NCBI GenBank assembly: GCA_944389185.1
Contig: CALXLL010000001.1
Location: 93,014 to 157,013 of the forward strand
Origin: an uncultured Alphaproteobacteria bacterium
GTDB taxonomy: Bacteria > Pseudomonadota > Alphaproteobacteria > Rs-D84
DNA length: 64,000 bases
Direction: 5' to 3'
Positions 4,825 to 54,208 of the stretch are shown one piece after another; position 1 is the stretch's first letter; every line of letters begins with the position of its first letter. Made by a program: the position numbers and the translations under genes. The notes beneath the pieces were generated by a model. The model had not been told where the DNA came from, did not search any database, and saw only the letters and a list, made by a program, of their open reading frames with translations.

Positions 4825-6168
4825 TCAATGCTCTATAGCCATTTGTATTAATTGTTTTGATTCTACTAAGAACTCCATAGGAAGTCTGGATAATATAGGA
4901 TTTGCTGTTGCGCCGATTATTAAAGCTATGGCTTGGTCTTCTGATATGCCGGCTTGTTCTAAGTAAAGCATTTGATTGGCGTCAATTGCGCCTGTGCTGG
5001 CTTCGTGACTTTGCTGATTTTCACCGTTATTATGTATTATTGTTGGTAAAGTATTTGATGTAGCGTTGTCTCCAACGATTCTTGTGTCGCATTTAGATGC
5101 GTTTTTACAATTTTTACCGCTAAAACTTACAAGACTTCTGAAAGTCTGTCTGGACCTATCGAGCGCTATACCATAAGAAACTATATTAGATACAGTGTCA
5201 TTACCAATATGTATCATTTTCGTTCCTGTGTCTGCTTGTTGATTACCGCGAGTTATTGCCAAAGAATAAAAATCGCTTGTAGATCCATCACCAGCAAGTA
5301 TAGTAGATGGGTATTTCCATGTTATAGCAGAGCCAACTTCTACTTGTGTCCAATCAAGTCTTGCGTTTTTTTCGCACTTTCCGCGTTTGGTTACAAAATT
5401 AAGAATACCACCGTCTGGAATAGTATGTTCAAAATCGCTGTATGTAGACATTTCTCCTGCATACCAGTTTTGAACAGTTGCATATTTTACGGTCGCATTT
5501 TCTTTTGTTATGATTTCAACGACACCGCTATGTAATTGATGATTTGGTCTTCTGGGGGCACTGCAACCTTCCATGTAACTTAGTTCTGAACCTTCGTCTG
5601 CGATTATTAAAGTTCTTTCAAATTGACCGATTTTTGCTGTTTCTATCCTGAAATAGCTTGCTAAATCAATAGGGCATTTTACACCTTTGGGAACGTATAC
5701 GAATGTCCCATCTGAAAACACCGCTGCATTTAAAGCTGCAAAAAAATTATCTGTTGAAGGAACTACCGACCCTAAATACTTTTTCACTAATTCCGGATGT
5801 TTTTGAACAGCTTCGGATAATGGTAAGAAGATTATACCTAATTTCTCTAATTCTTTACTGTATGATGTATGAACTGAACGACTGTCTATAACTGTATCTG
5901 TTGCCATACCAAGAAGGGCTTTTTGTTCGCTTTCTGATAAGCCCATTTTGTCATATGTTTTTTTTAAGTCAGAATTGTCTAAGGACTTTGCTTCGTTATA
6001 GTAATTTAATTCGTCGTAATTGATGTCTGGATAGGTTATTTCTGCCCAATTGGGTTCTTTCATTTTTTGCCATTTTTTAAACGCATCTATTCGCCAGTTT
6101 AATAACCAATCCGGTTCACCGCGCATATTGGATATGTTTTTTATAAGATTTTCTGATAACTTTGGCAT
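4825..6168 (-). CDS. sufB: Fe-S cluster assembly protein SufB
   Basis: 447 aa; the ATVQNWY segment and overall SufB/SufD-fold pattern; the N-terminal region resembles SufB rather than SufD. Confidence 0.75.
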   Translation of the reverse strand: MPKLSENLIKNISNMRGEPDWLLNWRIDAFKKWQKMKEPNWAEITYPDINYDELNYYNEAKSLDNSDLKKTYDKMGLSESEQKALLGMATDTVIDSRSVHTSYSKELEKLGIIFLPLSEAVQKHPELVKKYLGSVVPSTDNFFAALNAAVFSDGTFVYVPKGVKCPIDLASYFRIETAKIGQFERTLIIADEGSELSYMEGCSAPRRPNHQLHSGVVEIITKENATVKYATVQNWYAGEMSTYSDFEHTIPDGGILNFVTKRGKCEKNARLDWTQVEVGSAITWKYPSTILAGDGSTSDFYSLAITRGNQQADTGTKMIHIGNDTVSNIVSYGIALDRSRQTFRSLVSFSGKNCKNASKCDTRIVGDNATSNTLPTIIHNNGENQQSHEASTGAIDANQMLYLEQAGISEDQAIALIIGATANPILSRLPMEFLVESKQLIQMAIEH

Positions 6169-7837: not shown

Positions 7838-9466
7838 ATGATGAAATTATTTAATATCTTTACAACTTGTGGGCTTTTGTGTGCCGTTTTAGCAGGTTGT
7901 GCAAAGCAAGAGTCTGCAAAGGTCGCTGCATCTGTTGATCAAGATTTTATAAATGCTTATGATGCATTTGAAATGGCAAAAAATCCAACGGCAAAAGTAG
8001 CAAGTGGGGATACTGTTTCTATGTCCGAAGGCGTTTGGTTGGGAAATAAATCTACTTTGTTGGCTCATAGAAATAATCTGCCTTCCAGATTTGAAACAGA
8101 TACAGGAATTACTATTTTGTTAAATCAACCCGTCACTTTACAGGTGTTGGCAAATGATATAAATGCTATTACCGGTATCCCTGTAAAAATAGATAGTCAA
8201 GTTAATCAGGAAAAATTAAAGAAAACTATTAATGTAGCTTATACAGGTAAACTGTCTGGCTTGTTGTCTCAGGTAGCAACAGATTTGGATTTGTTATGGT
8301 ATTACGATAAATCTTCCATCGTTTTTTATGAAACAGAAACAAAGACTTTTACTTTGTATGCGTTGGGAACAGATGTTTCTTATCAATCTTCTGTGCAGAC
8401 AGATGACGGAAATCTGGTTTCTTTGGAATCTACTTTGAAAGAATGGGATGAAGTAGAACAAACAATTGCTTCTATTATAGGTAATTCTGACAATTCTGAT
8501 TTTAATGTATCTAGAAGTTTGGGGACTATTACAGTTACTGCACCTCCTTCTATTTTGGCAAGAGTAGGCGAATACATAGATAAGCAAAATAAAAGACTTT
8601 CTCAGTTAGTTACTATCGACGTGAAAGTATTACAAGTTTCAATATCAAATGATTCTGCGTTCGGTTTGAACTTAGCTGCGGCTATTAATTCTGCTTCCGG
8701 CTTGAATATAGTAGCTAATCCGAAAAATAATCTAACTACAACTGAAGCAAGTTCCATGAATATCGCTGTCTTGTCTAATACAGTGTCTGCTTTGACGGGG
8801 GCGACACATATAGAAGACGGTAAAGAAGTTGCCGGTGCATATACATCTGATCAAATTATGAATGGGTCTTTGTCTGGTTTGGCAGGCAGTGATGCTTTGA
8901 TACAAGCTTTGGCAAAACAGGGTAAAGTATCTTTGGTTACTAACGTAGGAGTCACAACAAGAAATAATCGTGTGGCACCGGTTAATAACACAAGAACAAC
9001 TGGATATATTAAACGTTTTGAATCAAGAAACTTTACAACAGTTGAATCAAGCACTGTTGACCAAGATGATTTGGAAACAGGGTTTTCAATGCAATTGTTA
9101 CCAAACGTTTTGGAAAACGGAAAAATATTACTGCTGTTCAGAATGTCTATTCGTGAATTGTTAAAGATGAGCAGTCAGACAATCGGTGAAGTAACGTTGC
9201 AATTACCAGAAGTTGAAGAACGTAGCTTTATGCAAGAAGTAATTATGGAATCTGGACAAATGTTGGTTGTTTCAGGTTTTGAAAAGCAAACGAATAATGA
9301 TACTCGTTATGGTTTGGGTGATCCTGACTTTATGGCTTTGTCTGGATCTAGGGAAACAAGTGCTACGCGTGATGTGTTGGTCGTTATACTGACACCGCAG
9401 GTTTTGGTTAGCCCGATGGATGTTGAAAGAACTATACAGCAGCATTGGGGGGCACCGTTAAATTAA
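7838..9466 (+). CDS. lipoprotein secretin (BfpB/TcpC/PilN-type type IV pilus secretin)
   Basis: Lipoprotein signal LLCAVLAGC; 542 aa; C-terminal secretin-domain pattern (VTIDVKVLQVSISNDSAFGLN... GQMLVVSGFEKQ...RDVLVVILTPQVL). Confidence 0.6.
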   Translation: MMKLFNIFTTCGLLCAVLAGCAKQESAKVAASVDQDFINAYDAFEMAKNPTAKVASGDTVSMSEGVWLGNKSTLLAHRNNLPSRFETDTGITILLNQPVTLQVLANDINAITGIPVKIDSQVNQEKLKKTINVAYTGKLSGLLSQVATDLDLLWYYDKSSIVFYETETKTFTLYALGTDVSYQSSVQTDDGNLVSLESTLKEWDEVEQTIASIIGNSDNSDFNVSRSLGTITVTAPPSILARVGEYIDKQNKRLSQLVTIDVKVLQVSISNDSAFGLNLAAAINSASGLNIVANPKNNLTTTEASSMNIAVLSNTVSALTGATHIEDGKEVAGAYTSDQIMNGSLSGLAGSDALIQALAKQGKVSLVTNVGVTTRNNRVAPVNNTRTTGYIKRFESRNFTTVESSTVDQDDLETGFSMQLLPNVLENGKILLLFRMSIRELLKMSSQTIGEVTLQLPEVEERSFMQEVIMESGQMLVVSGFEKQTNNDTRYGLGDPDFMALSGSRETSATRDVLVVILTPQVLVSPMDVERTIQQHWGAPLN

Positions 9467-41181: not shown

Positions 41182-42441
41182 ATGATAAAACGAAAGGTTG
41201 CTTTTTTCTCTGTTGGTGTTTTAAGCTTGATGATTCCTTGGTATAGTGCAACAGCTGATATTGCTTCAAAAAGTTATGTGGATCAAGAGGTAGGAAAAAA
41301 GCTAACTGCTGTCACAAGTAATACAACAGGCAGCGGTAATGTAGTGTCTGCCGTAAGTGCAACAGGCGGAACAATTACTGCAACAAAGGGTATTACCGCA
41401 GAAGAGGTTTCTAATAAAGTTAATACAATTCGTGATTCTGCTGCTGCTACTGATATTGCGTATCCATCTGAAAAGGCGGTTGCAACGGCTTTGGAAGGCA
41501 AAGCTGACAGTGCAGATTTGTCGGATTTAGCAACAAAAGCAGAATTAGAAAATTATGCAACTACAGAATCTTTGGCAACAGTCGCAACTACTGGTTCTTA
41601 TAACGATTTATCTGATAAGCCCGTTATACCGGAAGGCGTTGTTGTTGATGAAGTGATTACTGCAGAAGGAGTAAATCCAGTTCAAGGAAAAGCAGTATAT
41701 GAAGCTTTGGCTGGTAAGCAACCTGTGGGTGATTATGCTACAAATACAGCTTTAAGCTCTGTCCAGGCTACGGCGGAATCGGCACAGGATGATGCAACTG
41801 ATGCAATGCAAGCAGTGGATGGCAAAGTTTCAAAATCTCAAGGAACAGGAGCCGCAAATAAAGCTTTAGTTACAGATGCTTCTGGAAACGTGACTGCTGG
41901 AACGATTTCGTCTGCTATGATTACAGATGGAACGATAACAAATGCTGATATTTCAAGCTCTGCGGCAATTGATCAATCTAAAATATCAGGGTTAACAACT
42001 GCTTTGGCCGGGAAAGCCAATACCGAAGATTTAGCAGAAGTTGCAACAACCGGTTCGTATAACGATTTGACAGATAAACCTTCAATACCTGCTGCAATAA
42101 CGGTTGATACTGCTTTAAGTTCTACCAGCATAAATCCCGTTCAAAATAAAGTGATAAATACTGCTTTGGCCGGGAAGTTATCCACAACTGGGACCGCGGC
42201 AAAAGCAACAGCAGATGCAAACGGTAATAGTATAGTTGATACTTATGCTACTAAAACTCAATTATCAAGTTATGTTACTACTACTACTTTGAACGGTTTG
42301 GACAGCACAAGTTCCGGAACAGGCGCTGTCGTTACAGGGGTAAGTCAGACAAACGGTAAGGTGGCTGTAACTAAGGGTAACGTAAAAATACCGGTAGGAT
42401 CTGAAAGTGCTACTACTTATGCTACAATATGGATAGAATAA
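41182..42441 (+). CDS. secreted phage-tail-fibre-repeat protein, paralog 4 of 4
   Basis: Signal peptide; ADIASKSYVD; shares the ~190-bp ATTGSYNDL...NPVQGKAVYEALAGKQPVGDYATN cassette with paralog 2. Confidence 0.65.
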   Translation: MIKRKVAFFSVGVLSLMIPWYSATADIASKSYVDQEVGKKLTAVTSNTTGSGNVVSAVSATGGTITATKGITAEEVSNKVNTIRDSAAATDIAYPSEKAVATALEGKADSADLSDLATKAELENYATTESLATVATTGSYNDLSDKPVIPEGVVVDEVITAEGVNPVQGKAVYEALAGKQPVGDYATNTALSSVQATAESAQDDATDAMQAVDGKVSKSQGTGAANKALVTDASGNVTAGTISSAMITDGTITNADISSSAAIDQSKISGLTTALAGKANTEDLAEVATTGSYNDLTDKPSIPAAITVDTALSSTSINPVQNKVINTALAGKLSTTGTAAKATADANGNSIVDTYATKTQLSSYVTTTTLNGLDSTSSGTGAVVTGVSQTNGKVAVTKGNVKIPVGSESATTYATIWIE

Positions 42442-42460
42442 TCAAAATAATATAAACAAA

Positions 42461-42490
42461 AAGACGCCTTTTCAGCGTCTCTTTTTTTTT
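42461..42490. terminator. bidirectional rho-independent terminator (array end / dedA convergent)
   Basis: agacgc-cttttca-gcgtct hairpin plus a 9-nt T-run; an A-run precedes it. Confidence 0.5.
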
Positions 42491-42506
42491 ATAATTGTTA
42501 TTTACG

Positions 42507-43082
42507 TTATAATAATGTCATTAAACCTATACCAAGAGCCGCCGCTAATATTGCAATTAATGTTAATGGCCAAAAGTATTTTTTTACTATTGCATTTGCA
42601 CGTTCTTGGAAAAAGTATAGCAATGTAGCAATTGTTGCAAATCTTCCTGTTCTGAATATTGCAGATACCGCCAGAAATATCCATATTGGATAACCGATGA
42701 AACCAAGCCATATCGCAAGCAATTTATAAGGTATTGGCGTTACTGCTGTTAAAACGATTATCATAATCCCATATTTTGTAAACATAGGTTTTATAGTTGA
42801 TTCTATTAATTCTGGATTAGAAAATGTGTTAATCAGCCATATTCCAACCGAATCCCATAACCATGCACCTATCATATAAGCAATTGCACCGCCGACTATT
42901 GAACCAAGCGATGTAGCTATGGTAATTGGAACAGCTCTTTTTTTATCTGCTATTATCGGAGGTGTCATAAACACTTCTGGTGGAATGAATAAAAATATAG
43001 ATTCAAATATGGTTAGTATGAAAACTATCCACGAATAAGCCGGGTGTTCAGATTTCTTTAGTATATATTCTGCAAATTTCAT
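42507..43082 (-). CDS. DedA/SNARE-associated family membrane protein
   Basis: 191 aa polytopic membrane protein with a DedA-like pattern (FIPPEVFMTPP...GAIAYMIGAWL). Confidence 0.5.
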   Translation of the reverse strand: MKFAEYILKKSEHPAYSWIVFILTIFESIFLFIPPEVFMTPPIIADKKRAVPITIATSLGSIVGGAIAYMIGAWLWDSVGIWLINTFSNPELIESTIKPMFTKYGIMIIVLTAVTPIPYKLLAIWLGFIGYPIWIFLAVSAIFRTGRFATIATLLYFFQERANAIVKKYFWPLTLIAILAAALGIGLMTLL

Positions 43083-43165
43083 ATTTTCTCCTTGCCGATA
43101 AAACTATTTGATTGTAATTTAATCTTTGCTGTTTTACAATCAATATTATTTAAAGAAAATACGAT

Positions 43166-43519
43166 ATGAAAAGACAAAGTAATAATTCAAATAGAGAAGA
43201 ACGTATCGCTAGTAAAGTCCAAACTTTAGTAGCCGAGATTCTTCGTGATGACTTTTCTGATGATAAAATTATTTCTGGGGTGTCTTTAACCGGTTCTGTC
43301 GCGCATGGTGGTTTGCAATTTGTTCGTCTTTTTTATTATTCCAGAGAAAAAGATATAAAACTTGTTCAAAAACGTCTTGAAGAAATTACGAAAACAGTGC
43401 GCTTTGAATTAGCAGCCCGCATGAATCAAAAATATGTTCCTGATATAAGATTTCAATATGACGATTCGTTGGATAAGGCTGATAGAATAGAAGAATTATT
43501 GAAAAATATATCCGATTAA
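43166..43519 (+). CDS. rbfA: ribosome-binding factor A
   Basis: 117 aa; REERIASKVQTLVAEILRDDFSDDKI...VSLTGSV is the RbfA KH-like fold signature. Confidence 0.8.
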   Translation: MKRQSNNSNREERIASKVQTLVAEILRDDFSDDKIISGVSLTGSVAHGGLQFVRLFYYSREKDIKLVQKRLEEITKTVRFELAARMNQKYVPDIRFQYDDSLDKADRIEELLKNISD

Positions 43520-43580
43520 AAATAAGCTTGATAGTTGCTTTATACTGGTGTATCATTGCCGCATAGTATAGAGCCTTTTT

Positions 43581-45374
43581 ATGAATCAAAAGAATATTAG
43601 AAACTTTGCTATTGTTGCTCATATTGACCATGGTAAGTCAACTTTATCTGACAGGTTGATTGAATTTACTGGTGGTTTACAGTCGCGTGAAATGAAAGCT
43701 CAGGTCTTAGATTCTATGGATATAGAGCGTGAGCGCGGTATTACTATTAAAGCTCAGACCGTTCGTTTGAATTATAAAGCCAAAGACGGGCAAGAATATC
43801 AGCTGAATTTAATGGATACACCTGGCCACGTTGATTTTTCTTACGAGGTTTCTAGAAGTCTTGCTGCGTGTGAAGGTGCTTTAATTCTTGTGGATGCTAC
43901 GCAAGGCGTGCAAGCGCAAACTTTGGCAAATGCTTATCTTGCTTTGGATAACGATTTGGAAATGCTGCCTGTTTTAAATAAGATAGATTTACCTTCAAGC
44001 GATGTAGAAGCAGCTAAAGAACAAATCGCAGACGTAATAGGTTTAGATGCAAAAGACGCGGTTTGTGTTTCTGGTAAGACGGGTCAAGGTGTGCCAGATT
44101 TGCTGGAAGAAATAGTGCATAAATTACCCGCACCAAGCGGAGATGAAAATGCTTCAAGTCGTGCTTTGTTGGTTGATTCTTGGTATGATTCTTATCTGGG
44201 CGTTGTTATCTTGGTGCGCGTAGTTGACGGTAGTTTAAAGCGCGGACAAAAAATTAAGTTTTTAGCAACTGGTGCAGAATACTCTATTGAAAAAATTGGG
44301 TATTTTACTCCGAAAATGGTAGATGTCGATTCGTTGAATACAGGTGAAATTGGATTTATTGTAACGGGTATGAAAACCATACACGATTGCAAGGTCGGTG
44401 ATACAATAGCTGATGCAAAAGCAGAAAATGTTGAAGCTTTACCTGGTTTTAAGCCATCTGTTCCCGTAGTTTTTTCTTCTTTCTTTCCAGTTGAAGCAGA
44501 TGATTATCCTAATTTGCGCGAAAGTGCAGAAAAGCTGGCTTTAAATGATGCTTCGTTTATGTTTACTACGGAAAAATCTTCTGCGCTGGGGTTCGGATTG
44601 CGTTGTGGTTTCTTGGGATTGTTGCATATGGAAATCATAAGTGAAAGATTGGCACGTGAGTTTAACTTGAATCTTATAAATACCGTTCCAAGCGTGCTTT
44701 ATAAAGTTCATCTTAGAAACGGTGATGTAATCGATTTGGAAAATCCTGCCGATATGCCAGACGTAACTAAGATTGAATCAATAGAAGAACCATGGGTCAG
44801 GGCAACTATTATGATGCCAGATAAATACATGGGTGGGATTTTGTCTTTGTGCTCTGAAAGACGTGGCGTGCAAGAAAATATTTCTTATGTTGGGAATAGG
44901 GCGGTTTTGACTTACTTGTTGCCTTTGGCGGAAATAGTTTTTGATTTTTATGATAGAGTAAAATCTTTATCTTCTGGATACGCGTCTTTCGATTATGTTT
45001 TGCATGGTTATCAGCCTTCTGATTTGGTTAAAGTTTCTATACTTGTTAACGAAGAAAATGTAGAGCCTTTATCGTTTATGTGTCATAGAAGCTTTGCAGA
45101 AAAAAGAGGAAGACAAATCGTAGAAAAGTTAAAAGATTTGATACCAAGGCATCAATTTAAGATTCCTTTGCAGGCGGCAATCGGTGGAAAAATAATTGCC
45201 AGAGAAACTATTGCTGCTTATCGTAAAGACGTTACTGCTAAATGTTATGGCGGTGATATAACAAGAAAAAGAAAATTGCTGGAGAAGCAGAAGGAGGGAA
45301 AAAAACGTATGCGCAGTTTCGGTAATGTAGAAATACCACAATCTGCATTTATAAATGCGCTGAAAGTGTCTTAA
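43581..45374 (+). CDS. lepA: elongation factor 4 (LepA)
   Basis: GTPase motifs [14 protein letters not shown] and NKID; C-terminal LepA-specific domain; 597 aa. Confidence 0.9.
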
Positions 45375-45397
45375 ATACTTATTATAAAGGGTAAAAA

Positions 45398-45778
45398 ATG
45401 TCGCTGTTTAAATATTTAAAAAATAAAAAAATTAAAGATATAAAACAAGATATAAATCAGTATAGATTTTTGGGTTATATACAAAATGGTGCTAAAAAGG
45501 CCTATTTCGCAGCGTTAAAAAAAGTAGCTGTTGTATCTTTGAAAGATCCAGAAGATTATAAAATATGTATATTTGAAAGCGTCCCTTTGGTCGCAGAACC
45601 AGCAAATATTACTTATTGCAAAGATTTTGATCATAAAAATATGATTAATAATTGTAAAAATACTAATTGCCCGTGTTTTGAAGATAATCGTAATTTGTTT
45701 GATGCGGTCAGGTATTTAAAACACATTAAGGAAGTTAAACGCAATTTTTGGAAAGAAAAGTTAGCTTGTCAAAAATAA
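45398..45778 (+). CDS. small Cys-rich hypothetical protein (paralog A)
   Basis: 126 aa, starts MSLFKY, C-terminal C..C.C cluster; paralogous to the next ORF; RBS aaaggg. Confidence 0.4.
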   Translation: MSLFKYLKNKKIKDIKQDINQYRFLGYIQNGAKKAYFAALKKVAVVSLKDPEDYKICIFESVPLVAEPANITYCKDFDHKNMINNCKNTNCPCFEDNRNLFDAVRYLKHIKEVKRNFWKEKLACQK

Positions 45779-45790
45779 AGGTGTTAAGAA

Positions 45791-46204
45791 ATGTCTTTAT
45801 GGAAATATATAATATCAACGCCAAAACAAGCAATTTATGCTGATTATAAAAAATATAAAGATTTATGTAATGATATAAATAACGCAAAAATAAATTGTTT
45901 AAATCTTAAAATTAGTTTGGTTATAGACTTGGCATATGAAACAGATAAAGATCTGTTAAAAAAACAAAATGGTTGCATAATTATTAAATCTTTTGAAAAA
46001 CCAGATGCTGTGCAAAAACTTCCGGGAATAATAAGCGTTTTTAGTAATAATTGTGAATTTTTTAATGAAACTAGATGTTGCGATAAGGAAACGTGCTCGT
46101 TTTATAATAAAAATGCTGAATATTTTAAAGCTAAGAGAGCTTGTCGTGCGCTGGAAAAGCAAAAAAGAATATATTGGAAACAAAAGTTTGCTAATGCCAG
46201 GTAA
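45791..46204 (+). CDS. small Cys-rich hypothetical protein (paralog B)
   Basis: 137 aa, starts MSLWKY, CCDKETCSFYN cluster; shares the C-terminal K(R/Q).(F/Y)WK.K(L/F)A ending with paralog A. Confidence 0.4.
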   Translation: MSLWKYIISTPKQAIYADYKKYKDLCNDINNAKINCLNLKISLVIDLAYETDKDLLKKQNGCIIIKSFEKPDAVQKLPGIISVFSNNCEFFNETRCCDKETCSFYNKNAEYFKAKRACRALEKQKRIYWKQKFANAR

Positions 46205-46237
46205 TAACTTATAAATATATGAAAAGGGGGATATAGG

Positions 46238-47236
46238 ATGGCACATCAGTTTTATTTTAATCCTTATATTTTGGATAACCTTCCGGCCCCAAGTTCTGGC
46301 TTTGACGTAGTGCAAGATGTTTCAGAACCAAGACTTCGTATGTATATAACAAGTCGCGGTATTAAAAGCTTTTTTGTTCGTAAAAGAGTGCACGGTAAAG
46401 ATAAAAGAATAATTATAGGTAATTACCCAGAAATAGATATAGAAACCGCAAGAAGTGCAGTTCAAGATGTTTTAGATAAAGCTTTGCAAAAAGTTCCCGT
46501 TAATCGCCATAAAATATCATTTAAAAAAATAGTTGATATTTATATGTTAAAGCATGTAAGACGAACAGGGGGCGCAAAAGAAAAATTATATAGAGCTATT
46601 AATCTTCATTTGTTTAGTCTGTTTGATAAGACCCTTGTTGATATTACGACCGAAGACGTGAAAAGCGTTATAGATAAAATATCTGGACCTGTAATAGCAG
46701 GACGTATGCAAGAGCTTTTAAGAAGTATATTTAACTATGCTATAGAAACAGGGTATGCAAAAAATAACCCAGTTGATAATCTGCCAAAGCGAAAACATGA
46801 AATAAAAAAATCTCCACTAAATAAAAGCTTGTTCAATAGATTATTGCGATTAATAAAAAAGCAAGAATCTCAAAATATCCGTTCTGCTTTTTTGATGCTG
46901 ATTTATGGTTTCGCACCTAAGTCAAAAATATTTTCTATGCAATGGAAAGATTTGGATTTTAATCACTATACTTGGAATGATTTCCCTTTGTCCGATGCTG
47001 CGGTTGTGTTATTGCAAGATTTACCTCAGAATGGACGTTGGGTATTCCCTGGGCGTGGACGCGGACACTTAACAGACCCACGTATAGCGTGGCGCAAAAT
47101 AGTTGACACTATCGGGGTAAGTAATCTTACTATGGATGACTTATATAAATACTTGATGCGACAGTTAACCTGGACAGCAAATAAAGAAGATTTACGATTT
47201 AATATGAATGATTTACTGAATAATCTTATAGACTAA
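46238..47236 (+). CDS. P4-type tyrosine integrase remnant (arm-binding N-terminus intact, catalytic residues substituted, C-terminus truncated)
   Basis: N-terminus GFDVVQDVSEPRLRMYITSRGIKSFFVRKRVHGKDKRIIIGNYPEIDIETARSAV matches the DUF4102-type integrase arm domain. The catalytic-Arg box reads GFAPKSKIFSMQWKDLDF (R replaced by P), the HxLR box reads TMDDLYKYLMRQ, and at 332 aa the ORF ends before the catalytic Tyr. Confidence 0.45.
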   Translation: MAHQFYFNPYILDNLPAPSSGFDVVQDVSEPRLRMYITSRGIKSFFVRKRVHGKDKRIIIGNYPEIDIETARSAVQDVLDKALQKVPVNRHKISFKKIVDIYMLKHVRRTGGAKEKLYRAINLHLFSLFDKTLVDITTEDVKSVIDKISGPVIAGRMQELLRSIFNYAIETGYAKNNPVDNLPKRKHEIKKSPLNKSLFNRLLRLIKKQESQNIRSAFLMLIYGFAPKSKIFSMQWKDLDFNHYTWNDFPLSDAAVVLLQDLPQNGRWVFPGRGRGHLTDPRIAWRKIVDTIGVSNLTMDDLYKYLMRQLTWTANKEDLRFNMNDLLNNLID

Positions 47237-47356
47237 TCTAAAACCTCTTTTGTTATCGTTTGTTATAATTCCTTGACACTTTGGTTGTAAAATGATAGCT
47301 TTAAGTATGACGCCTTAATTATGGGCCACAAAATTAACCTAAATAAAGGATAAAAA

Positions 47357-47596
47357 ATGACAACTTTTGATGAAGTAAAAAAATTAGTAGTAGAAAAGCT
47401 TAGCGTTTCTGAAGATAAAGTTACAGAAAATGCAAAGTTTATTGAAGATTTGGGTGCAGATTCTTTGGATGTCGTAGAATTTGTTATGGAAGTTGAAAAG
47501 CAATTCGGGGTCGAAATACCTGATGATGAAGCTGCTAAATTAAATACAGTTGGTGATGCAGTAAAATACATCGATGCACAGAGAGCTAAAAAATAA
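47357..47596 (+). CDS. acpP: acyl carrier protein
   Basis: [16 protein letters not shown] phosphopantetheine-attachment motif; 79 aa. Confidence 0.9.
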
Positions 47597-47620
47597 TAAC
47601 TTATCGTTATTAAACTTTTT

Positions 47621-47657
47621 CCGCTAAGCAATTTCTAAGCTTGGCGGATTTTTTTTT
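47621..47657 (+). terminator. rho-independent terminator after acpP
   Basis: ccgcuaagc/gcuuggcgg stem (one G-U pair) plus a 9-nt T-run. Confidence 0.5.
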
Positions 47658-47724
47658 CTGTATTTTTAAGTTAAAAACTTGTATTATACAAGCGTATAAT
47701 TAACTTTTAAAAGGATTCTTAAAT

Positions 47725-48978
47725 ATGAAAAGAGTAGTTATTACTGGTATGGGTATAGTTTCACCAGTTGGAACTGGCGTTGAATATGCGTGGAAAAATA
47801 TCGTTGCAGGAAAATCAGGGGTTCGTAAAATAGATTTGTTTGACGCTTCTGATTTGGCGTCACAAATTGCAGGCGTGCCAGTTTATGGTAGCGAGCCAGG
47901 GCAGTTTAACCCAGATACTGTTTTTGATGCCAAAGAACAAAGAAAAATGGATAAATGTATAATTTATGGCATGGTCGCTGCAGACGAAGCCATCAAAGAC
48001 GCTGGCTTGGATAATTATACGGGTAATAAAGAAAGAATAGGCGTATCAATAGGTGCCGGTATAGGTGGCTTGAATACTATTTATGATAATTGTGTAGAAC
48101 TTTATACAGGTGGTCCAAGACGAATCAGTCCTTTCTTTATACCAAAAGCAATCATAAATATGACAGCAGGTAACGTATCTATTAAATATGGGTTAAAAGG
48201 GCCTAATTTGTCTGTTGTCACAGCTTGCGCTTCCGCAGCACATTCTATCGGTGAAGCGGTTCGTTTAATTATGCATGGCGATGCAGATGTTATGGTGGCC
48301 GGTGGTGCAGAAGGGGCCGTAGGTAAAATTGGGGTTGCTGGTTTTGCCGCAATGAAGGCTTTAAGCACAAGAAATGATGACCCAGAAGCTGCTTCTAGAC
48401 CGTGGGATAAAAATCGTGACGGTTTTGTTATTGCTGAAGGAGCGGGTATATTGGTCCTTGAAGAATATGAACATGCCGTTGCTCGCGGTGCGAAAATATA
48501 TGCAGAAGTTGCAGGATACGGTTTGTCAGGTGATGCTTATCATATAACTGCACCTGCTGAAGGCGGTGAAGGTGGTTTGCGCGCAATGAAAGCTGCTTTA
48601 AAAGATGCCGGTTTAAAACCAGAAGATGTTGATTATATAAACGCTCATGGAACTTCTACTGGCTTAGGAGATTTAGGCGAACTTGAAGCCGTTAAAACTT
48701 TATTTAAGGATTTGCCTGTGTCTATGTCTTCTACCAAGTCCATGACAGGGCACTTGTTAGGTGCTGCCGGTGCTGTGGAAGCTATATTCTGTGTATTGGC
48801 GATTCGTGACGGTATAGTGCCTCCTACTATTAACTTACAAGACCCAGAAGATGCGGTTGGTAATTTTGATTTGGTCCCAAATAAAGCCAAAAAGCGCAAG
48901 GTTGATGTTGCAATAAGTAACTCTTTTGGTTTTGGGGGAACAAACGCAAGTCTGGTTTTAAAAAAATTAACTGATTAA
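47725..48978 (+). CDS. fabF: 3-oxoacyl-ACP synthase II
   Basis: Active-site Cys region VVTACASAAHS; His-His (NAHGTSTG ... HLLGAAG); 417 aa. Confidence 0.9.
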   Translation: MKRVVITGMGIVSPVGTGVEYAWKNIVAGKSGVRKIDLFDASDLASQIAGVPVYGSEPGQFNPDTVFDAKEQRKMDKCIIYGMVAADEAIKDAGLDNYTGNKERIGVSIGAGIGGLNTIYDNCVELYTGGPRRISPFFIPKAIINMTAGNVSIKYGLKGPNLSVVTACASAAHSIGEAVRLIMHGDADVMVAGGAEGAVGKIGVAGFAAMKALSTRNDDPEAASRPWDKNRDGFVIAEGAGILVLEEYEHAVARGAKIYAEVAGYGLSGDAYHITAPAEGGEGGLRAMKAALKDAGLKPEDVDYINAHGTSTGLGDLGELEAVKTLFKDLPVSMSSTKSMTGHLLGAAGAVEAIFCVLAIRDGIVPPTINLQDPEDAVGNFDLVPNKAKKRKVDVAISNSFGFGGTNASLVLKKLTD

Positions 48979-49010
48979 TTTGGTTGGAATCCTAGCAACT
49001 GGATACTAAA

Positions 49011-49050
49011 AAAACAAACGCAAGATTTTTGTCTTGCGTTTGTTTTTTCT
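49011..49050. terminator. bidirectional rho-independent terminator (fabF / acyl-CoA synthetase convergent)
   Basis: 12-bp perfect stem acaaacgcaaga/tcttgcgtttgt flanked by A- and T-runs. Confidence 0.5.
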
Positions 49051-49063
49051 GTATCATTACTTT

Positions 49064-50758
49064 TTATTTTTCTTCGTCTTTATCTAGTCCCATAGCCGTT
49101 TTTACAGGGTCTATGATGGGATCTATTAAAGTATTTTTAGCGCTGTCTAAAGTTCTTATTAATGCGCGCTTGATTTTACCGCTGATAGTCATTGGAAGTT
49201 CATCAACAAATTCTATAACGCGCGGGCATTTATACGTTGCTGTTCTGCTGCGGACGTGATCTTGTAACTGGCGGACCAATATGTCAGAAGGTTGAAAATA
49301 TTTGTTTGTTACAACAGTTGCCTTTATTGCCATGCCACGAGAAGGGTCTGGTATTCCTGTTACTGCAACTTCACGAACAGCAGGGTGTTCTAATAAAACG
49401 CTTTCTACTTCAAAAGGACTTACGCGATAACCAGATGTTTTTATCAGGTCGTCATTACGTCCTACAAACCAATAGTATCCGTCCGAATCGCGATAAGCTA
49501 CATCACCTGTGTGATAATAACCGTCACGGCAAGCTAAATTGGTTTTTTTGTCGTTCTTATAATACCCTTGAAATAAACCAACCGGGCGACCGTTCTTTAA
49601 TGAAATACATATTTCACCAACAGTTCCTTCGGGAACAGGGCGACCTTTTTCATCTAATAATTGTATGTCCCAACCTGCTGCTGGCATACCCATACTGCCT
49701 GGTTTTGGTTCTATCCACTGATTGTTGAATAATAATAAGCATGTTTCCGTTTGACCAAAACCTTCACGCATTTTTATACCGGTTTGTTCTAGGAACCGTT
49801 CGAATACTTCCGGATTCAAAGCTTCGCCGGCAATTTCTGCTTTTTTCAAAGAAGACAGGTCATATTTTGACATATCTGCATGAATCAGCATTTTATAAGC
49901 CGTTGGAGGAGCACAAAAAGAAGTAACGTGATTATCAGCAATTGCGCTTAATAAATCATGAGCGTTTGCTGCGCTAGAGAAATCATAAACGAATACGGTA
50001 GCGCCGGCAAGCCATTGACCATACATCTTTCCCCACGAGCATTTTGCCCAACCCGATTCGGATAAAGTGAAATGTATATCACCGTCAGAAAGTTGTTGCC
50101 AGAAAACAGCGGTATTTATATGGCCAAGCGGATAAGTGTAATTATGTGCAACCATTTTAGGCATATCGGTAGTTCCGCTTGTGAAGTAAAGCACCATTGT
50201 TTCTTCGTTGTTATTGGGGACTCGTTCAAAAGAATCGGGCATATTATTCAAAGATTGGGCAACTTCGGTATTATAAATAAGTTGTATTTGGTCTTCGCCG
50301 ATAGCTTCTTTTATTTCTTTTATTATGTGGCCGTCATCAAAAGCTATAATATTTTTAACGTTTGCGGTATCAATTCTGTATTTTATATCTTCGGCTTTTA
50401 ACTGATTCGTTGAAGGAATAGGAATAGCCCCGACTTTATGCATAGCCATCATAAGAATCCAGTATTCCCAGCGTCTTCTCATAAATAACAGAACAGTGTC
50501 GTTTTTATGGATACCTTTGCTTATCAAGAAGTTAGCGACTTTATTGGACATGATAGATAAATCTTTGAAAGAGAAAGTCTTTTTTTCTTTTGTATCGTCT
50601 GTCCAGAGTAAAGCAGTTTTATCTGGTGTTTCGTTTGCAAGCACATCTATTACATCATAAGCAAAGTTAAAATTATTTGGCACGTTTGGTATAGCGTTTT
50701 TTATATAATCATCATAATTATCGAAAGTATTTTTATTTAAAAATCTAAGGGCAAACAT
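49064..50758 (-). CDS. AMP-dependent acyl-CoA synthetase/ligase
   Basis: AMP-binding motif YFTSGTTDMPKMV; 564 aa; C-terminal ISGKIKR. Confidence 0.7.
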   Translation of the reverse strand: MFALRFLNKNTFDNYDDYIKNAIPNVPNNFNFAYDVIDVLANETPDKTALLWTDDTKEKKTFSFKDLSIMSNKVANFLISKGIHKNDTVLLFMRRRWEYWILMMAMHKVGAIPIPSTNQLKAEDIKYRIDTANVKNIIAFDDGHIIKEIKEAIGEDQIQLIYNTEVAQSLNNMPDSFERVPNNNEETMVLYFTSGTTDMPKMVAHNYTYPLGHINTAVFWQQLSDGDIHFTLSESGWAKCSWGKMYGQWLAGATVFVYDFSSAANAHDLLSAIADNHVTSFCAPPTAYKMLIHADMSKYDLSSLKKAEIAGEALNPEVFERFLEQTGIKMREGFGQTETCLLLFNNQWIEPKPGSMGMPAAGWDIQLLDEKGRPVPEGTVGEICISLKNGRPVGLFQGYYKNDKKTNLACRDGYYHTGDVAYRDSDGYYWFVGRNDDLIKTSGYRVSPFEVESVLLEHPAVREVAVTGIPDPSRGMAIKATVVTNKYFQPSDILVRQLQDHVRSRTATYKCPRVIEFVDELPMTISGKIKRALIRTLDSAKNTLIDPIIDPVKTAMGLDKDEEK

Positions 50759-50885: not shown

Positions 50886-50962
<77 letters not shown>

Positions 50963-50987
50963 GAAATACACACTAAAACGTCATAAA

Positions 50988-51019
50988 AACAAGTAATTTA
51001 CAAACTTGTTCATTTTTTT
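50988..51019 (+). terminator. hairpin plus T-run downstream of tRNA-Pro
   Basis: aacaagt-aatttacaa-acttgtt followed by cattttttt. Confidence 0.4.
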
Positions 51020-51041
51020 AGCTTTTTTATTTTGTGTTTGT

Positions 51042-51050
51042 TGTTATAAT
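51042..51050 (+). promoter_or_regulatory. extended -10 element (TGnTATAAT) upstream of the methyltransferase gene
   Basis: TGTTATAAT lies 36 nt upstream of the ATG at 51087. Confidence 0.35.
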
Positions 51051-51086
51051 GAAAAGCGCAACTTTTGTATATTCTAAGGGAAAAAT

Positions 51087-52220
51087 ATGATTGATTTGTT
51101 TGGCGATAATAATTTTATAGATTTTAGCTCGGATTTTTATACTAAGCACCTAATTACATACATCGGAAACAAAAGGGCGTTATTACCTTTTATAAACTCT
51201 GGTATAGAAACTGTAAAAAAAAGCTTGGGTATTGATAAACTATTTTGCTTAGATGGTTTTGCTGGTAGTGGTGTAGTATCAAGATTGTTAAAACACCATT
51301 CTAGAATTTTGCATTCTAATGACATAGAAAATTATTCTTATATAATTAATCAATGCTATTTATCAAATAAAAGTGATATCGATGAAAAATATATAAAAAA
51401 TATATTGGATATATTAAATAACATACCAGAAAAAGATTTATATGAAGGCTTTATAACCAAGAATTATTCTCCTAAAAATGACGACGACATAAAAGAAGGA
51501 GAAAGGGTTTTTTATACACATAAAAATGCCCTTATTATAGATACTATTAAAAAAATGATATTTGAAACTATACCGAAAGATAAGCAGAAGTTTTTTTTAA
51601 GTCCTTTACTTATAAATGCCTCTGTTCATACAAACACTTCAGGTGTTTTTAAAGGTTTTCATAAGAAAAATGGTATAGGTCATTTTGGGGGGGCAGGCGA
51701 AAACGCATTGACAAGAATAAAAGGAAAAATATTTTTAGAAAATCCTGTGTTTAGCGAAGAAGAATGTGAAGTAAGAGTTTTTAATCAAGATATAAATGAG
51801 CTAATAAAAAAAACAGAAAATCAGAATTATGATTTAGTTTATTATGATCCACCTTATAATCAGCACCCTTATGGATCTAATTATTTTATGTTAAATATTA
51901 TAGCGAATCCTTCAGAAGAAATAGAAATTCAAACAGGCGTAAGTGGAATAGCAAAAGACTGGTATAAATCTGCTTATAACAAAAAAGATGCTGCAATAGT
52001 TGCTTTGGAAGATTTGATAAAGAATACGAAGTCTAAATATATTTTGATATCTTATAATAATGAAGGAATAATACCATTTGATACTTTTAAAGATATATTA
52101 AATAGATATGGGAAAGTTTCTGTTTTAGAAAAAGATTATAATACATATAGGGGCTGTAGGAATTTAAATAATAGGGATATAAAAGTAAAAGAATTATTAT
52201 GGATTCTTGAAAAGAGGTAA
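51087..52220 (+). CDS. Type II N6-adenine DNA methyltransferase, alpha class (Dam-like motif order)
   Basis: YIGNKRALLPFI (Dam-like motif X), AdoMet motif I DGFAGSGVV, catalytic motif IV YYDPPY. 377 aa; very AT-rich. Confidence 0.75.
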   Translation: MIDLFGDNNFIDFSSDFYTKHLITYIGNKRALLPFINSGIETVKKSLGIDKLFCLDGFAGSGVVSRLLKHHSRILHSNDIENYSYIINQCYLSNKSDIDEKYIKNILDILNNIPEKDLYEGFITKNYSPKNDDDIKEGERVFYTHKNALIIDTIKKMIFETIPKDKQKFFLSPLLINASVHTNTSGVFKGFHKKNGIGHFGGAGENALTRIKGKIFLENPVFSEEECEVRVFNQDINELIKKTENQNYDLVYYDPPYNQHPYGSNYFMLNIIANPSEEIEIQTGVSGIAKDWYKSAYNKKDAAIVALEDLIKNTKSKYILISYNNEGIIPFDTFKDILNRYGKVSVLEKDYNTYRGCRNLNNRDIKVKELLWILEKR

Positions 52221-52224
52221 AAAA

Positions 52225-52923
52225 ATGAGTGACTCTGATTTATTAAGAAAGACTAGAAAAAATACTGTTATAAATCAAATTTCTAAATATCAAGAGAAAG
52301 AAATAAAAAGGGCTTTGGTAAACGTTGTTGAAAAAATACAAAAAGAATTTCCTAAAATTAGATTAAACTTTAAACCTACTTCTAAATTAAGTTTTATCGT
52401 AAAACATTTAAGGAAGCTTTTTCCTGATATCGATTTTCATTATAAATTTGATTCGTCTTTTATTTCTCCGGATGGCGGTTTTTTAAATCTTGAAGATTCT
52501 GAAGGTAATCTTTATCCTGTATTAATATCAGAAGTTAAAAATCAGGGGACTAATGATAAAAGACAAAAAGAAGGACTGTGCAAACAATCAAAAGGTAATG
52601 CCATAGAACGATTAGGCAAAAATGTTATTGGTTTAAGAGCTTATTTATTAAATGAAGGAATATTCCCATTTGTGTGTTTCGGATATGGATGTGATTTTGC
52701 AGAAGATTCTTCTATTCTTGATAGGGTTATAACAATAGGAATGTTTGGTGAATTGAATAAAACATACTTGGTTAATCAGGGACTGTTCAATAGGGGAAGT
52801 TTTTATTTTAGAGATAGCAAATGGTCGGTAGAAGAAATGACAGAGATAATGTATGATATTTGTAAAAGAAGTATACATTATTATTTTGCAAAATATGGAG
52901 AAGACATATTTTTAGAAAAATAA
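52225..52923 (+). CDS. EcoRI-family Type II restriction endonuclease
   Basis: Alignable by eye to R.EcoRI: FISPDGGFLNLEDSEGNLYPVLISEVKNQG vs SIKPDGGIVEVKDDYGEWRVVLVAEAKHQG (Asp91, Glu111, Lys113 equivalents conserved); GNAIERLGKNV vs GNAIERSHKNI; C-terminal KWSVEEMTEIMYDI vs EWDSKIMFEIMFDI. Start at the ATG preceded by AAGAGG, 4 nt after the methyltransferase stop (ORF track uses TTG at 52207). Confidence 0.8.
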   Translation: MSDSDLLRKTRKNTVINQISKYQEKEIKRALVNVVEKIQKEFPKIRLNFKPTSKLSFIVKHLRKLFPDIDFHYKFDSSFISPDGGFLNLEDSEGNLYPVLISEVKNQGTNDKRQKEGLCKQSKGNAIERLGKNVIGLRAYLLNEGIFPFVCFGYGCDFAEDSSILDRVITIGMFGELNKTYLVNQGLFNRGSFYFRDSKWSVEEMTEIMYDICKRSIHYYFAKYGEDIFLEK

Positions 52924-52933
52924 AATTTATATT

Positions 52934-53953
52934 ATGAAAAGAAAATTGCGCTGGTTTAAAACTTTATTCTTACCTCAGACCTTTTATGCTTTGGTCGCTG
53001 CTTTCGCAATCGCTGCTTTTTATATCGTCTTTTGCGTTTCTGCGGTTGAACAAAATATAACTTTTTCCGTTAAAAAAGGAAGCTCGGTTTCCGCAGTAGC
53101 TTATGCCTTGAAAAAAAATAATATCATCAATTCTATACCTGCTTTTAAAATATCGGTCCTTTTAAATGGTAATAATATTAAAAGTGGCGATTACGATATC
53201 CCAAAAAATGCTAGCGTTTATAAAATTGCTAAAATGCTGGCCACAGGTGATATCGCTTCTACTACTATCGTAATACCAGAAGGACTTACCGTTAAACAGA
53301 TTAAAGAACTTCTTAATAATAATCCAAACTTAACCGGCAGTATGACTTGCCAAGACGATTCGGCTAGCCCTGTGTGCAATCTGCAAGACGGGCAAATCTT
53401 CCCTGATACTTATACCGTTGCAAAAGGAACTTTGCGACTTGCCGTGCTGGAGCTTGCTTATAAAAAAATGCAAACTATTCAAAATAATTGGATTAAAGCC
53501 GGCGCAAAAGCGCCTAAACCTCTTAAAAACTGGAATGATGTCGTTACTTTGGCTTCAATAGTGCAAAAAGAAACTCCTGTCGCTAAAGAAATGCCAATAG
53601 TTGCCAGCGTTTACCTTAACCGACTGAATAAAAATATGCGTCTGCAAGCTGATCCTACTGTTGTATATGCTTTGACAAACGGTTTGGGCGATATGAAAGG
53701 TGAACCTTTGCTTCGTGGGCATTTAAAAATAGAAAGTCCTTATAATACTTATGCTAATAATGGTTTGCCGCCAGCACCTATCGCTAATGTCGGTAAAGAT
53801 GCTATCAAAGCCGTTCTTAATCCTGCAGATACAAATTATCTTTTCTTCGTCGCAGACGGAACGGGGGGACATAGGTTTGCTGAATCTTATGAACAACATA
53901 TGCAGAACCATGCTGACTGGCGCGAAATAAAAAAATTGCAAAATAAAAATTAA
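52934..53953 (+). CDS. mltG: endolytic murein transglycosylase MltG (YceG family)
   Basis: N-terminal TM; YceG signature ASIVQKETPVAKEMPIVASVYLNRL...LQADPTVVYAL. Confidence 0.75.
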   Translation: MKRKLRWFKTLFLPQTFYALVAAFAIAAFYIVFCVSAVEQNITFSVKKGSSVSAVAYALKKNNIINSIPAFKISVLLNGNNIKSGDYDIPKNASVYKIAKMLATGDIASTTIVIPEGLTVKQIKELLNNNPNLTGSMTCQDDSASPVCNLQDGQIFPDTYTVAKGTLRLAVLELAYKKMQTIQNNWIKAGAKAPKPLKNWNDVVTLASIVQKETPVAKEMPIVASVYLNRLNKNMRLQADPTVVYALTNGLGDMKGEPLLRGHLKIESPYNTYANNGLPPAPIANVGKDAIKAVLNPADTNYLFFVADGTGGHRFAESYEQHMQNHADWREIKKLQNKN

Positions 53954-54107
53954 AAAATCTGCATCGGTGATTTTTTATAATAAAATTCATTCTATTTTTT
54001 AATGATTTTTTGATTTTTAATATGCTTGATTAGCAAGCTTTACAGAAGTTTTTATGATTTTATTCCGAATCGGAAACTTTTTAGAGAGTAGCACATTTTT
54101 AAGCGTT

Positions 54108-54136
54108 TTGCAAAAATCTTTGTCCTTGCTTATAGC
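54108..54136 (+). promoter_or_regulatory. candidate sigma70 promoter for the OMP gene
   Basis: TTGCAA-17-TATAGC, ~72 nt upstream of the ATG at 54209. Confidence 0.25.
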
Positions 54137-54208
54137 TTTTGCCGCACTGTAAAATATAAATGACTAGGTAAAAAACTAGTTAGTTAAACAAAACCATAAG
54201 GATGGAAA

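Follow-up and report, generated by a model that had tools for sequence, protein, structure and literature searches.

Between lepA and acpP, the stretch of DNA analyzed here (64,000 nucleotides from an uncultured alphaproteobacterium of the order Rs-D84; GenBank assembly GCA_944389185.1, contig CALXLL010000001.1, positions 93,014 to 157,013 of the forward strand; hereafter, the window) carries three open reading frames (ORFs) of 126, 137, and 332 amino acids. We consider it probable that the longest of these encodes a domesticated, catalytically dead P4-type integrase, which has become a fixed host gene and whose most likely role is now to bind DNA in a sequence-specific manner. We infer DNA binding because the protein retains the three-domain architecture of the integrases while every DNA-cleaving residue has been lost; the promoter region of acpP is suggested as its target, and the products of the two small, Cys-rich ORFs might serve as its modulators. 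The original prediction for this interval, made from the sequence alone, was of a decayed mobile-element remnant; the ORF listing bears out the three ORFs that it described, and its subsidiary suggestion of a “domesticated” recombinase with its catalytic residues gone is upheld by the alignments and the conservation detailed below.

The 332-amino-acid protein descends from a P4/CP4-57-type tyrosine integrase. As had been predicted, its N terminus is of the arm-binding type, with a match to Arm-DNA-bind_3 (PF13356) over residues 32 to 82 (29.2 bits versus a cut-off of 27), and residues 112 to 182 match Phage_int_M (PF22022; 30 bits versus a cut-off of 27). The Pfam search returned no match in this protein to the Phage_integrase catalytic domain (PF00589), for which members of the short family to which it belongs score 17.6 to 24.4 bits (cut-off, 27.1) versus 74 to 110 bits for genuine integrases. 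The PHROG_1 integrase profile matches residues 26 to 298 (7e-29), and the XerD NCBIfam profile TIGR02225 scores 15.7 bits versus a cut-off of 329.6, which places the protein outside the XerC/XerD equivalogs. A HMMER search of the full library recovered a handful of full-length relatives of 327 to 353 amino acids with 38 to 49% identity; a gap in score from E values of 1e-58 to 1e-32 separates this short family from the ordinary integrases of 380 to 430 amino acids, which show homology over about 300 residues at 27 to 34% identity (E values down to 1e-32). An AlphaFold2 model of the full-length protein, computed with a 43-sequence family alignment, has a mean predicted local distance difference test (pLDDT) score of 82.5. 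In Foldseek searches against the PDB, this model aligns best, over about 348 columns, with the full-length lambda Int (1z1b; E value, 3e-7), and the Tn1549 integrase comes next; for its N-terminal domain, the arm domains of the HPI/P4-like type (3jtz and 3rmp) are matched with a template modeling (TM) score of 0.80. Based on the matches to lambda Int and the P4-like arm domains, the clamp architecture comprised of the arm, core-binding, and catalytic-fold domains is predicted to be preserved.

The catalytic residues were mapped by a joint alignment with genuine P4-type integrases, which has no gaps around the anchor positions, and by a profile alignment with lambda Int. The first Arg (Arg-I) of the canonical TG-x-R motif (lambda R212) is replaced by Pro227, within GFAPKS. 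A 12-column gap takes the place of the canonical TKNG (E/K-TKNG) beta-hairpin, the segment that carries the catalytic Lys (lambda K235). In the HxxR motif, His-II is replaced by Asp300 and Arg-II by Tyr303 (MDDLYKY), and the segment bearing His-III (LGH) is deleted. Hence, the by-eye reading of substituted Arg and H-x-L-R boxes in the original prediction was right, and the R-H-R-Y set is not intact. The statement that the ORF terminates ahead of the catalytic Tyr needs amendment: the Tyr column is reached and is occupied by Leu327, five residues ahead of the stop, with the canonical C-terminal tail absent. Across 67 unique family sequences, the Arg-I position is P, S, T, or H; the His-II position is D; the Arg-II position is Y, H, or N; and the Tyr position is L, I, or M, such that in 0 of the 67 is a catalytic Arg or the catalytic Tyr found in its column. 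The same dead active site is seen in the representatives with 38 to 49% identity, and the alignments indicate that the loss of the whole catalytic apparatus is family-wide. At the same time, the catalytic-fold domain has acquired new family-invariant motifs, GRGRGHLTDPR and NLTMDD.

When each GTDB species was represented by a single genome, scanning yielded 65 loci, nearly all of them in metagenome-assembled genomes from animal and human guts labeled Candidatus Enterousia or (uncultured) Alphaproteobacteria, with matches that are all 58 to 66% identical to the protein. The gene is intact, coding for 332 to 346 amino acids, in 65/65 of these species loci, and the order rbfA, lepA, zero to three small ORFs, the integrase-like gene, acpP, and fabF is found in 71/71 close loci. 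A word-indexed protein search gave 1,064 matches, the best 120 of which are all 332 to 362 amino acids long and 63 to 99% identical. The ratio of nonsynonymous to synonymous substitution rates (dN/dS), computed by the Nei-Gojobori method, is 0.14 for the integrase-like gene, with 0.11 for rbfA, 0.10 each for fabF and acpP, and 0.02 for lepA (89 to 93% identity across the loci). The G+C content at third codon positions (GC3) of the gene is 0.255 versus 0.19 to 0.29 for the neighboring host genes. In the 67 unique sequences, 42 of the 85 columns of the arm domain, 14 of the 91 of the core-binding domain, and 35 of the 137 of the degenerate catalytic-fold domain are invariant. The integrase-like gene is therefore under purifying selection rather than decaying, and we count it in favor of DNA binding that its best-conserved part is the arm-type DNA-binding domain. 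The genomes of Enterousia and the Rs-D84 order are smaller than 1 Mb, with a normal coding density and no accumulation of pseudogenes, and lack amino acid, nucleotide, and lipid biosynthesis (PMC12306168); the retention of a 1-kb gene in all such genomes is hence a strong argument for a function.

The association with lepA and acpP extends beyond the close relatives. We looked up the genomic context of distant representatives of 50% identity clusters, in which the integrase-like gene (int) is found in the orders lepA-int-acpP-fabF, with int 3 nucleotides after lepA (P0121, 49% identity); lepA-int-acpP-fabF-yceG (P0122, 45%); lepA-int (P0123, 40%); int-acpP-fabF-yceG (P0125, 41%); and, in the most divergent member, acyl-ACP (acyl carrier protein) thioesterase-int-recR (P0127, 38%). 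Small ORFs are absent from the loci of all five. As the representatives with 40 to 49% identity share the lepA/acpP position and none of the five has the small ORFs, the gene was already dead and fixed between lepA and acpP before the distant lineages split, and the small ORFs were inserted later, in the Enterousia branch. We also observed, in the lepA-to-int spacer of the relative with 45% identity (L078, positions 5926 to 6000), a long near-perfect palindrome of GGTTT(G/A)AG-type repeats, possibly forming a hairpin, a terminator, or a repeat element.

The signatures expected of a mobile element were sought in the same interval. A search for direct and inverted repeats over positions 42400 to 49100 gave, apart from a terminator hairpin after fabF, only short chance matches, leaving no att-like direct repeats in the flanks of the kind that the original prediction had proposed to look for. 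No tRNA adjoins the locus, the only tRNAs in the window being at 155 and 50886; a search against Rfam recovered these two tRNAs and no further family. No other tyrosine recombinase was found in the 64-kb window. In phage and plasmid collections, the integrase-like protein matches only genuine phage integrases, with at most 26% identity, and it has no matches among IMG/VR viral contigs; PADLOC recognizes none of the three proteins. As PF00589, the catalytic residues, and the element context all fail, the protein should not be filed as an integrase.

The spacers from lepA through the three ORFs are, in order, 23, 12, and 33 nucleotides, and no terminator-like site was found from lepA to the end of the 332-amino-acid ORF, in keeping with the original remark that no terminator follows lepA. 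Given the short gaps and the lack of a terminator-like site between the genes, lepA, the two small ORFs, and the integrase-like gene appear to form a single, cotranscribed operon. In nearly all relatives, the integrase-like gene or the small ORFs start 3 to 35 nucleotides after lepA.

The two small ORFs were rightly predicted to be paralogous: their products are 27% identical by BLASTP (E value, 5e-5), share invariant Cys and Trp residues and an FWxxKF tail, and match no Pfam, NCBIfam, PHROG, or PADLOC family. Paralog A has an MSLFKY N terminus, Cys residues at positions 56, 74, 86, 91, and 93, and an FWKEKLA tail. The ORFs in the lepA-to-int gap of all loci constitute a single family of 117 to 146 amino acids with a conserved N-terminal helix (M-x-W/L-x-x-Y...D-W-x-E-Y), a central Cys followed by C-x(7-13)-C-x(4-5)-C, and a C-terminal helix ending in FWxxKFxNVK; C62, C88, C102, and W129 are invariant and C97 nearly so. 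The four conserved Cys residues suggest that these proteins probably bind a metal. An AlphaFold2 model of paralog B (pLDDT, 73) shows long helices at residues 12 to 48 and 103 to 136 around a poorly modeled Cys region, and a Foldseek search of the PDB with the small-protein model returned nothing below an E value of 3.

There are no small ORFs in 11 unique loci, one in 49, and two in 7, while the loci L004 to L006 carry three, the third of which is the fusion described below. Loci lacking them are scattered in the integrase tree beside relatives that have them; for instance, L010 has no small ORF and L008 has two at 94% integrase identity. This scatter indicates that they have been repeatedly lost. 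With a median dN/dS of 0.34, the small ORFs are real genes under purifying selection that evolve faster than their neighbors; their G+C content is 27% versus a window mean of 36%. A database profile search with the family recovered only 13 relatives, none of them named. A metagenome scan, for which the broad small-ORF alignment (A2) was too divergent and the narrower subfamily alignment A6 was used, added three further loci, all with the order lepA-small ORF-int-acpP-fabF. The small ORFs are thus found, in all loci and in the metagenome loci alike, solely in the lepA-to-int gap, and searches of phage, plasmid, and viral collections with the small ORF gave no match. The designation of these ORFs as “cargo” in the original prediction is not supported, given their purifying selection, their confinement to this gap, and the lack of phage or plasmid matches.

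In three of the loci (L004:4345-4974, L005:4346-4975, and L006:2290-2919), the third paralog is a 209-amino-acid protein with an N-terminal PP-binding domain (32.5 bits versus a cut-off of 20.8). This domain retains the serine motif DSL, and its identity to the AcpP encoded next to it is 39% (E value, 6e-22). This fusion hints at a link to the status of the acyl carrier protein.

The int-to-acpP spacer (47237 to 47356) is unusually well conserved, with 75% pairwise identity over the 110 nucleotides ahead of acpP versus 50 to 59% upstream of fabF, lepA, rbfA, and the integrase-like gene. The acpP promoter P2 can be read directly from the sequence and is nearly invariant across at least 65 species. 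Just ahead of it lies the tandem direct repeat TTTGTTAT-cg-TTTGTTAT, every position of which is at least 80% conserved across the loci. The exact double motif occurs once in the window and is also kept in the locus of the relative with 49% identity. Positions 47249 to 47269 read TTTGTTAT-cg-TTTGTTATAAT, and TTGTTATAAT occurs at three other sites in the window, each 25 to 45 nucleotides upstream of a Shine-Dalgarno sequence and ATG. Hence, TTGTTATAAT is a generic extended -10 element in this genome, and a second promoter, P1, accounts at least in part for the proximal TTTGTTAT repeat. Having initially regarded the TTTGTTAT repeats as a dedicated operator, we downgrade them to a candidate, given the generic nature of TTGTTATAAT and the absence from the window of the motif on the mltG side. 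Downstream of P2, the 5′ untranslated region (UTR) of acpP contains a small stem-loop, followed by the Shine-Dalgarno sequence and ATG; by eye, its position is conserved in the alignments, and changes in its stem are compensatory between lineages. RNAalifold returned no consensus structure for this UTR, where alignment gaps misalign the short hairpin, and the stem-loop belongs to no Rfam family.

About 20 relatives carry a second double-motif site, TTTGTTATAATT(T/C)GTTAT, in the DNA that separates mltG/yceG from an outer-membrane beta-barrel gene; the site is antisense to both genes (e.g., L017:12271-12288 on the minus strand, L018:9229, L038:10530, and L048:1843 on the plus strand). Two of these loci display further peculiarities: L018 has at 8024 to 8073 (minus strand) 50 nucleotides that repeat, in inverted orientation, the ribosome-binding site and initial codons (MTTFE...) of acpP, which suggests a second, divergently placed acpP-like gene, and L048 has at 521 to 881, upstream of the outer-membrane protein gene, tandem copies of about 150 nucleotides that are 92 to 96% identical and contain internal inverted repeats.

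Several parallels for a catalytically dead member of this fold are offered by known systems. Genuine P4/CP4-57-type integrases have the same domain order, with arm and core-binding domains scoring above the Pfam thresholds and a matching fold. Unlike them, the protein studied here is about 50 to 100 amino acids shorter, has lost the catalytic residues, the Lys hairpin, and His-III, and is encoded by a single-copy core gene in fixed synteny, with no att site, tRNA target, or element. MrpR (YopR) and SroF of SPbeta-like Bacillus phages have the tyrosine-recombinase fold and have lost the recombinase function to become operator-binding repressors (PMC10516654; bioRxiv 10.1101/2025.11.27.690993); further, SroF is inactivated by a small dedicated antirepressor, Sar, and the P4 integrase regulates its own expression (bioRxiv 10.1101/2025.11.27.690993). 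The likeness lies in a recombinase fold without recombinase function, the loss of activity here being deduced from the sequence, and in the presence of small partner-like proteins, encoded immediately upstream here, in the manner of Sar. However, MrpR and SroF are phage encoded and have only core-binding and catalytic domains, whereas our protein is chromosomal and has an arm domain; MrpR retains the Tyr and Lys, whereas our protein has lost both and derives from the P4 integrase branch; and the operator binding known for the repressors is matched here by predicted DNA binding with only candidate sites at the acpP promoter. Neither MrpR nor SroF is among the top 50 Foldseek PDB matches of our model. 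The integrase-like protein would work most like the integrase-fold repressors, yet, given its arm domain, its chromosomal location, and this structural distance, it is an independent domestication. In TnsF of the Tn6022-like Tn7 transposons, an inactivated tyrosine recombinase serves as the target selector (PMC10293859). This too is a dead tyrosine-recombinase derivative co-opted for sequence-specific DNA recognition and combined with zinc finger or Cys-rich modules; however, TnsF resides in a transposon (with tnsABC/tniQ) and has fused N-terminal zinc fingers and tandem core-binding-like domains, whereas our protein has lepA, acpP, and fabF as neighbors and no zinc finger N terminus, with the Cys-rich module as a separate small protein. 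The literature search found no description of the integrase-like family, and no source names these proteins.

These published precedents make DNA binding the natural reading. We accordingly envisage the integrase-like protein as a transcriptional regulator or an architectural factor, which would hold DNA through its clamp without cleaving it. Its most plausible target would be the conserved acpP-fabF promoter region, where two helically phased TTTGTTAT repeats abut the -35 box. By analogy with the action of Sar on SroF, the small Cys-rich proteins might modulate the DNA-binding protein and are probably lineage-specific accessory modulators.

Other explanations account for part of these observations. 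That the locus is a decaying mobile-element remnant, in which the integrase would be an inactivated pseudogene headed for loss and the small ORFs would be residual cargo, would fit the lost catalytic residues, the low G+C content of the small ORFs, and their variable copy number and repeated losses. We regard it as extremely unlikely, as the gene is intact with constant length and position in 65/65 species and in the relatives with 40 to 49% identity, has a low dN/dS, a host-like GC3, and 35 invariant columns in the supposedly dead domain, and shows neither att repeats nor an adjacent tRNA. Moreover, its hosts are streamlined and do not accumulate pseudogenes, and even the small ORFs are under purifying selection. 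The comparison of the lepA-to-acpP interval among relatives thus produced conserved chromosomal orthologs of the integrase-like gene, a kind of result that the original prediction had itself named, with respect to the small ORFs, as one that would speak against it. Recent horizontal copies of a single element are likewise contradicted by the 58 to 66% identity range and the synteny with host genes. A still-active recombinase with noncanonical chemistry, which might invert or rearrange the acpP-fabF-ligase-mltG segment, is suggested by the new invariant residues of the C-terminal domain (H243, H277, R282, D300, D301, K304, and R308), by the variable orientation and position of the AMP-binding ligase and mltG among species, and by the occurrence, in about 20 relatives, of the double TTTGTTAT motif in inverted orientation beyond mltG. 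This too seems very unlikely: there is no conserved Tyr in the C-terminal 40 residues (relatives have H, N, or F in place of Tyr303 and Tyr305), the catalytic apparatus has lost five positions and two segments together, and the two motif sites share only about 20 nucleotides, which coincide with promoter elements, the second site being absent from this window.

Tyrosine recombinases act as multimers, and their tetramers tolerate inactive protomers, raising the possibility that the protein is a noncatalytic subunit or architectural cofactor of an active recombinase or of the chromosome-maintenance machinery (e.g., Xer/dif or segregation) rather than a transcription factor. The retention of the clamp architecture with the arm domain, a DNA-bridging module, is compatible with such a role, as is the proximity of the most divergent family member to recR. 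Nevertheless, no other tyrosine recombinase is encoded within the window, the conserved neighbors are lepA and acpP rather than recombination genes, and the C-terminal tail, which in canonical integrases mediates the cyclic contacts between protomers, is missing; we therefore hold this role to be unlikely. Slightly less likely still is a function through protein contacts with LepA and translation or with acyl-carrier biochemistry, in which the DNA-binding surfaces would be reused for a non-DNA ligand. It draws on the closeness of the gene to lepA (3 to 35 nucleotides away in the loci without a small ORF), with possible translational coupling, on the proximity to acpP or an acyl-ACP thioesterase, and on the fusion of a partner paralog to an ACP-like domain; against it stand the arm-type DNA-binding domain as the most conserved region and the absence of any precedent in the literature search.

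Several points weigh against the DNA-binding regulator that we favor. Both its DNA binding and its acpP target are predictions from sequence. The conservation upstream of acpP could reflect the tandem promoters of a highly expressed gene, because the proximal TTTGTTAT copy lies in an extended -10 element of generic type, with TGTTATAAT recurring at three further promoters of the window. The second double-motif site is absent from the spacer between mltG and the outer-membrane protein gene in this window (53954 to 54208). The small ORFs are absent from this position in 11/65 species and hence cannot be partners that the protein requires, unless those genomes encode them at another site, and the ACP-like fusion could be a by-product of the duplication of the neighboring acpP. 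Finally, the conserved adjacency to lepA is as strong as that to acpP and is unexplained by a regulator of acpP.

A more specific role is suggested, if loosely, by the adjacency to acpP-fabF, the thioesterase adjacency in the most distant member, the ACP-like fusion, and the conserved acpP promoter, namely, that the integrase-like protein controls acyl-carrier metabolism or lipid scavenging via acpP. We think this doubtful, and we attach the same low likelihood to its extension, in which the dead integrase, the Cys-rich proteins, and AcpP would together constitute a new kind of lipid-status switch. In such a switch, the pseudo-recombinase would hold the acpP-fabF promoter by its phased repeats and would receive the acyl-ACP or redox state from the small metal-binding proteins, of which one has an ACP-like domain; the output would be control of fatty acid scavenging in a bacterium that depends obligately on a partner and has a genome of less than 1 Mb. 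If true, a heterobivalent (arm plus core) integrase would for the first time be seen to have given rise to a host-essential transcription factor in bacteria.

Features of the lepA-to-fabF interval, numbered from the first nucleotide of the window
Feature	Position	Strand	Basis or remark
lepA (EF4)	43581-45374	+	First gene of the apparent operon; Pfam GTP_EFTU/LepA_C
Small Cys-rich paralog A, 126 amino acids	45398-45778	+	ORF listing
Small Cys-rich paralog B, 137 amino acids	45791-46204	+	ORF listing
Integrase-like gene, 332 amino acids	46238-47236	+	ORF listing
Arm-type DNA-binding domain, residues 1-85	46238-46492	+	Pfam PF13356, Foldseek
Core-binding domain (SAM-like, Phage_int_M), residues about 95-185	46520-46792	+	PF22022
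Degenerate catalytic-fold domain, residues about 196-332	46823-47236	+	Alignments, AlphaFold2 model
Tandem direct repeat TTTGTTAT-cg-TTTGTTAT	47249-47266	+	Just upstream of the acpP -35 box; candidate operator
P1 promoter extended -10 TGTTATAAT	47261-47269	+	Overlaps the proximal TTTGTTAT copy
acpP promoter P2	47273-47301	+	TTGACA (47273-47278), 17-nucleotide spacer, TG-extended -10 TAGCTT (47296-47301)
acpP 5′ UTR small stem-loop	47312-47326	+	Seen by eye in alignments
acpP	47357-47596	+	Constant downstream neighbor of the integrase-like gene
fabF	47725-48978	+	Constant downstream neighbor, after acpP

The wider neighborhood of this locus has some features of its own. The repeat search recovered a bidirectional terminator hairpin after fabF. 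Beside fabF is an AMP-binding ligase (49064 to 50758, minus strand), possibly an acyl-ACP/CoA synthetase, whose orientation and position vary among species and whose GC3 is 0.47 versus 0.19 to 0.29 in its neighbors. Between the ligase and mltG (52934 to 53953) lie a tRNA-Pro(CGG) at 50886 and a D12-class N6-adenine DNA methyltransferase (51087 to 52220), overlapped by a 238-amino-acid ORF (52207 to 52923); since many relatives have no genes between the ligase and mltG, the segment from 50886 to 52923 may be an inserted restriction-modification-like module. On the other side, upstream of lepA, a 419-amino-acid ORF (41182 to 42441) of no Pfam family has a signal peptide-like start and a repetitive, Ala/Thr/Ser-rich sequence with internal repeats of the form ATTGSYNDL(S/T)DKP(V/S)IP, and its product may be a surface or fiber-like protein.

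Previous descriptions of dead tyrosine recombinases that serve as DNA binders, those of MrpR/SroF and TnsF, concern mobile elements. Here, it is the host that keeps a dead recombinase, complete with its arm domain, at one site across a lineage of gut symbionts with extremely reduced genomes, in which almost every retained gene is expected to matter. The family would thereby offer a clean natural example of the domestication of an enzyme into a DNA binder in a bacterial chromosome, and, for Candidatus Enterousia and the Rs-D84 order at large, it points to a regulator or architectural protein that is probably important and has gone unannotated. Annotators are also cautioned against taking an “integrase” call in these genomes as the mark of a mobile element. 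The family of Cys-rich proteins and its ACP-like fusion provide a concrete, testable lead to the function of this system.

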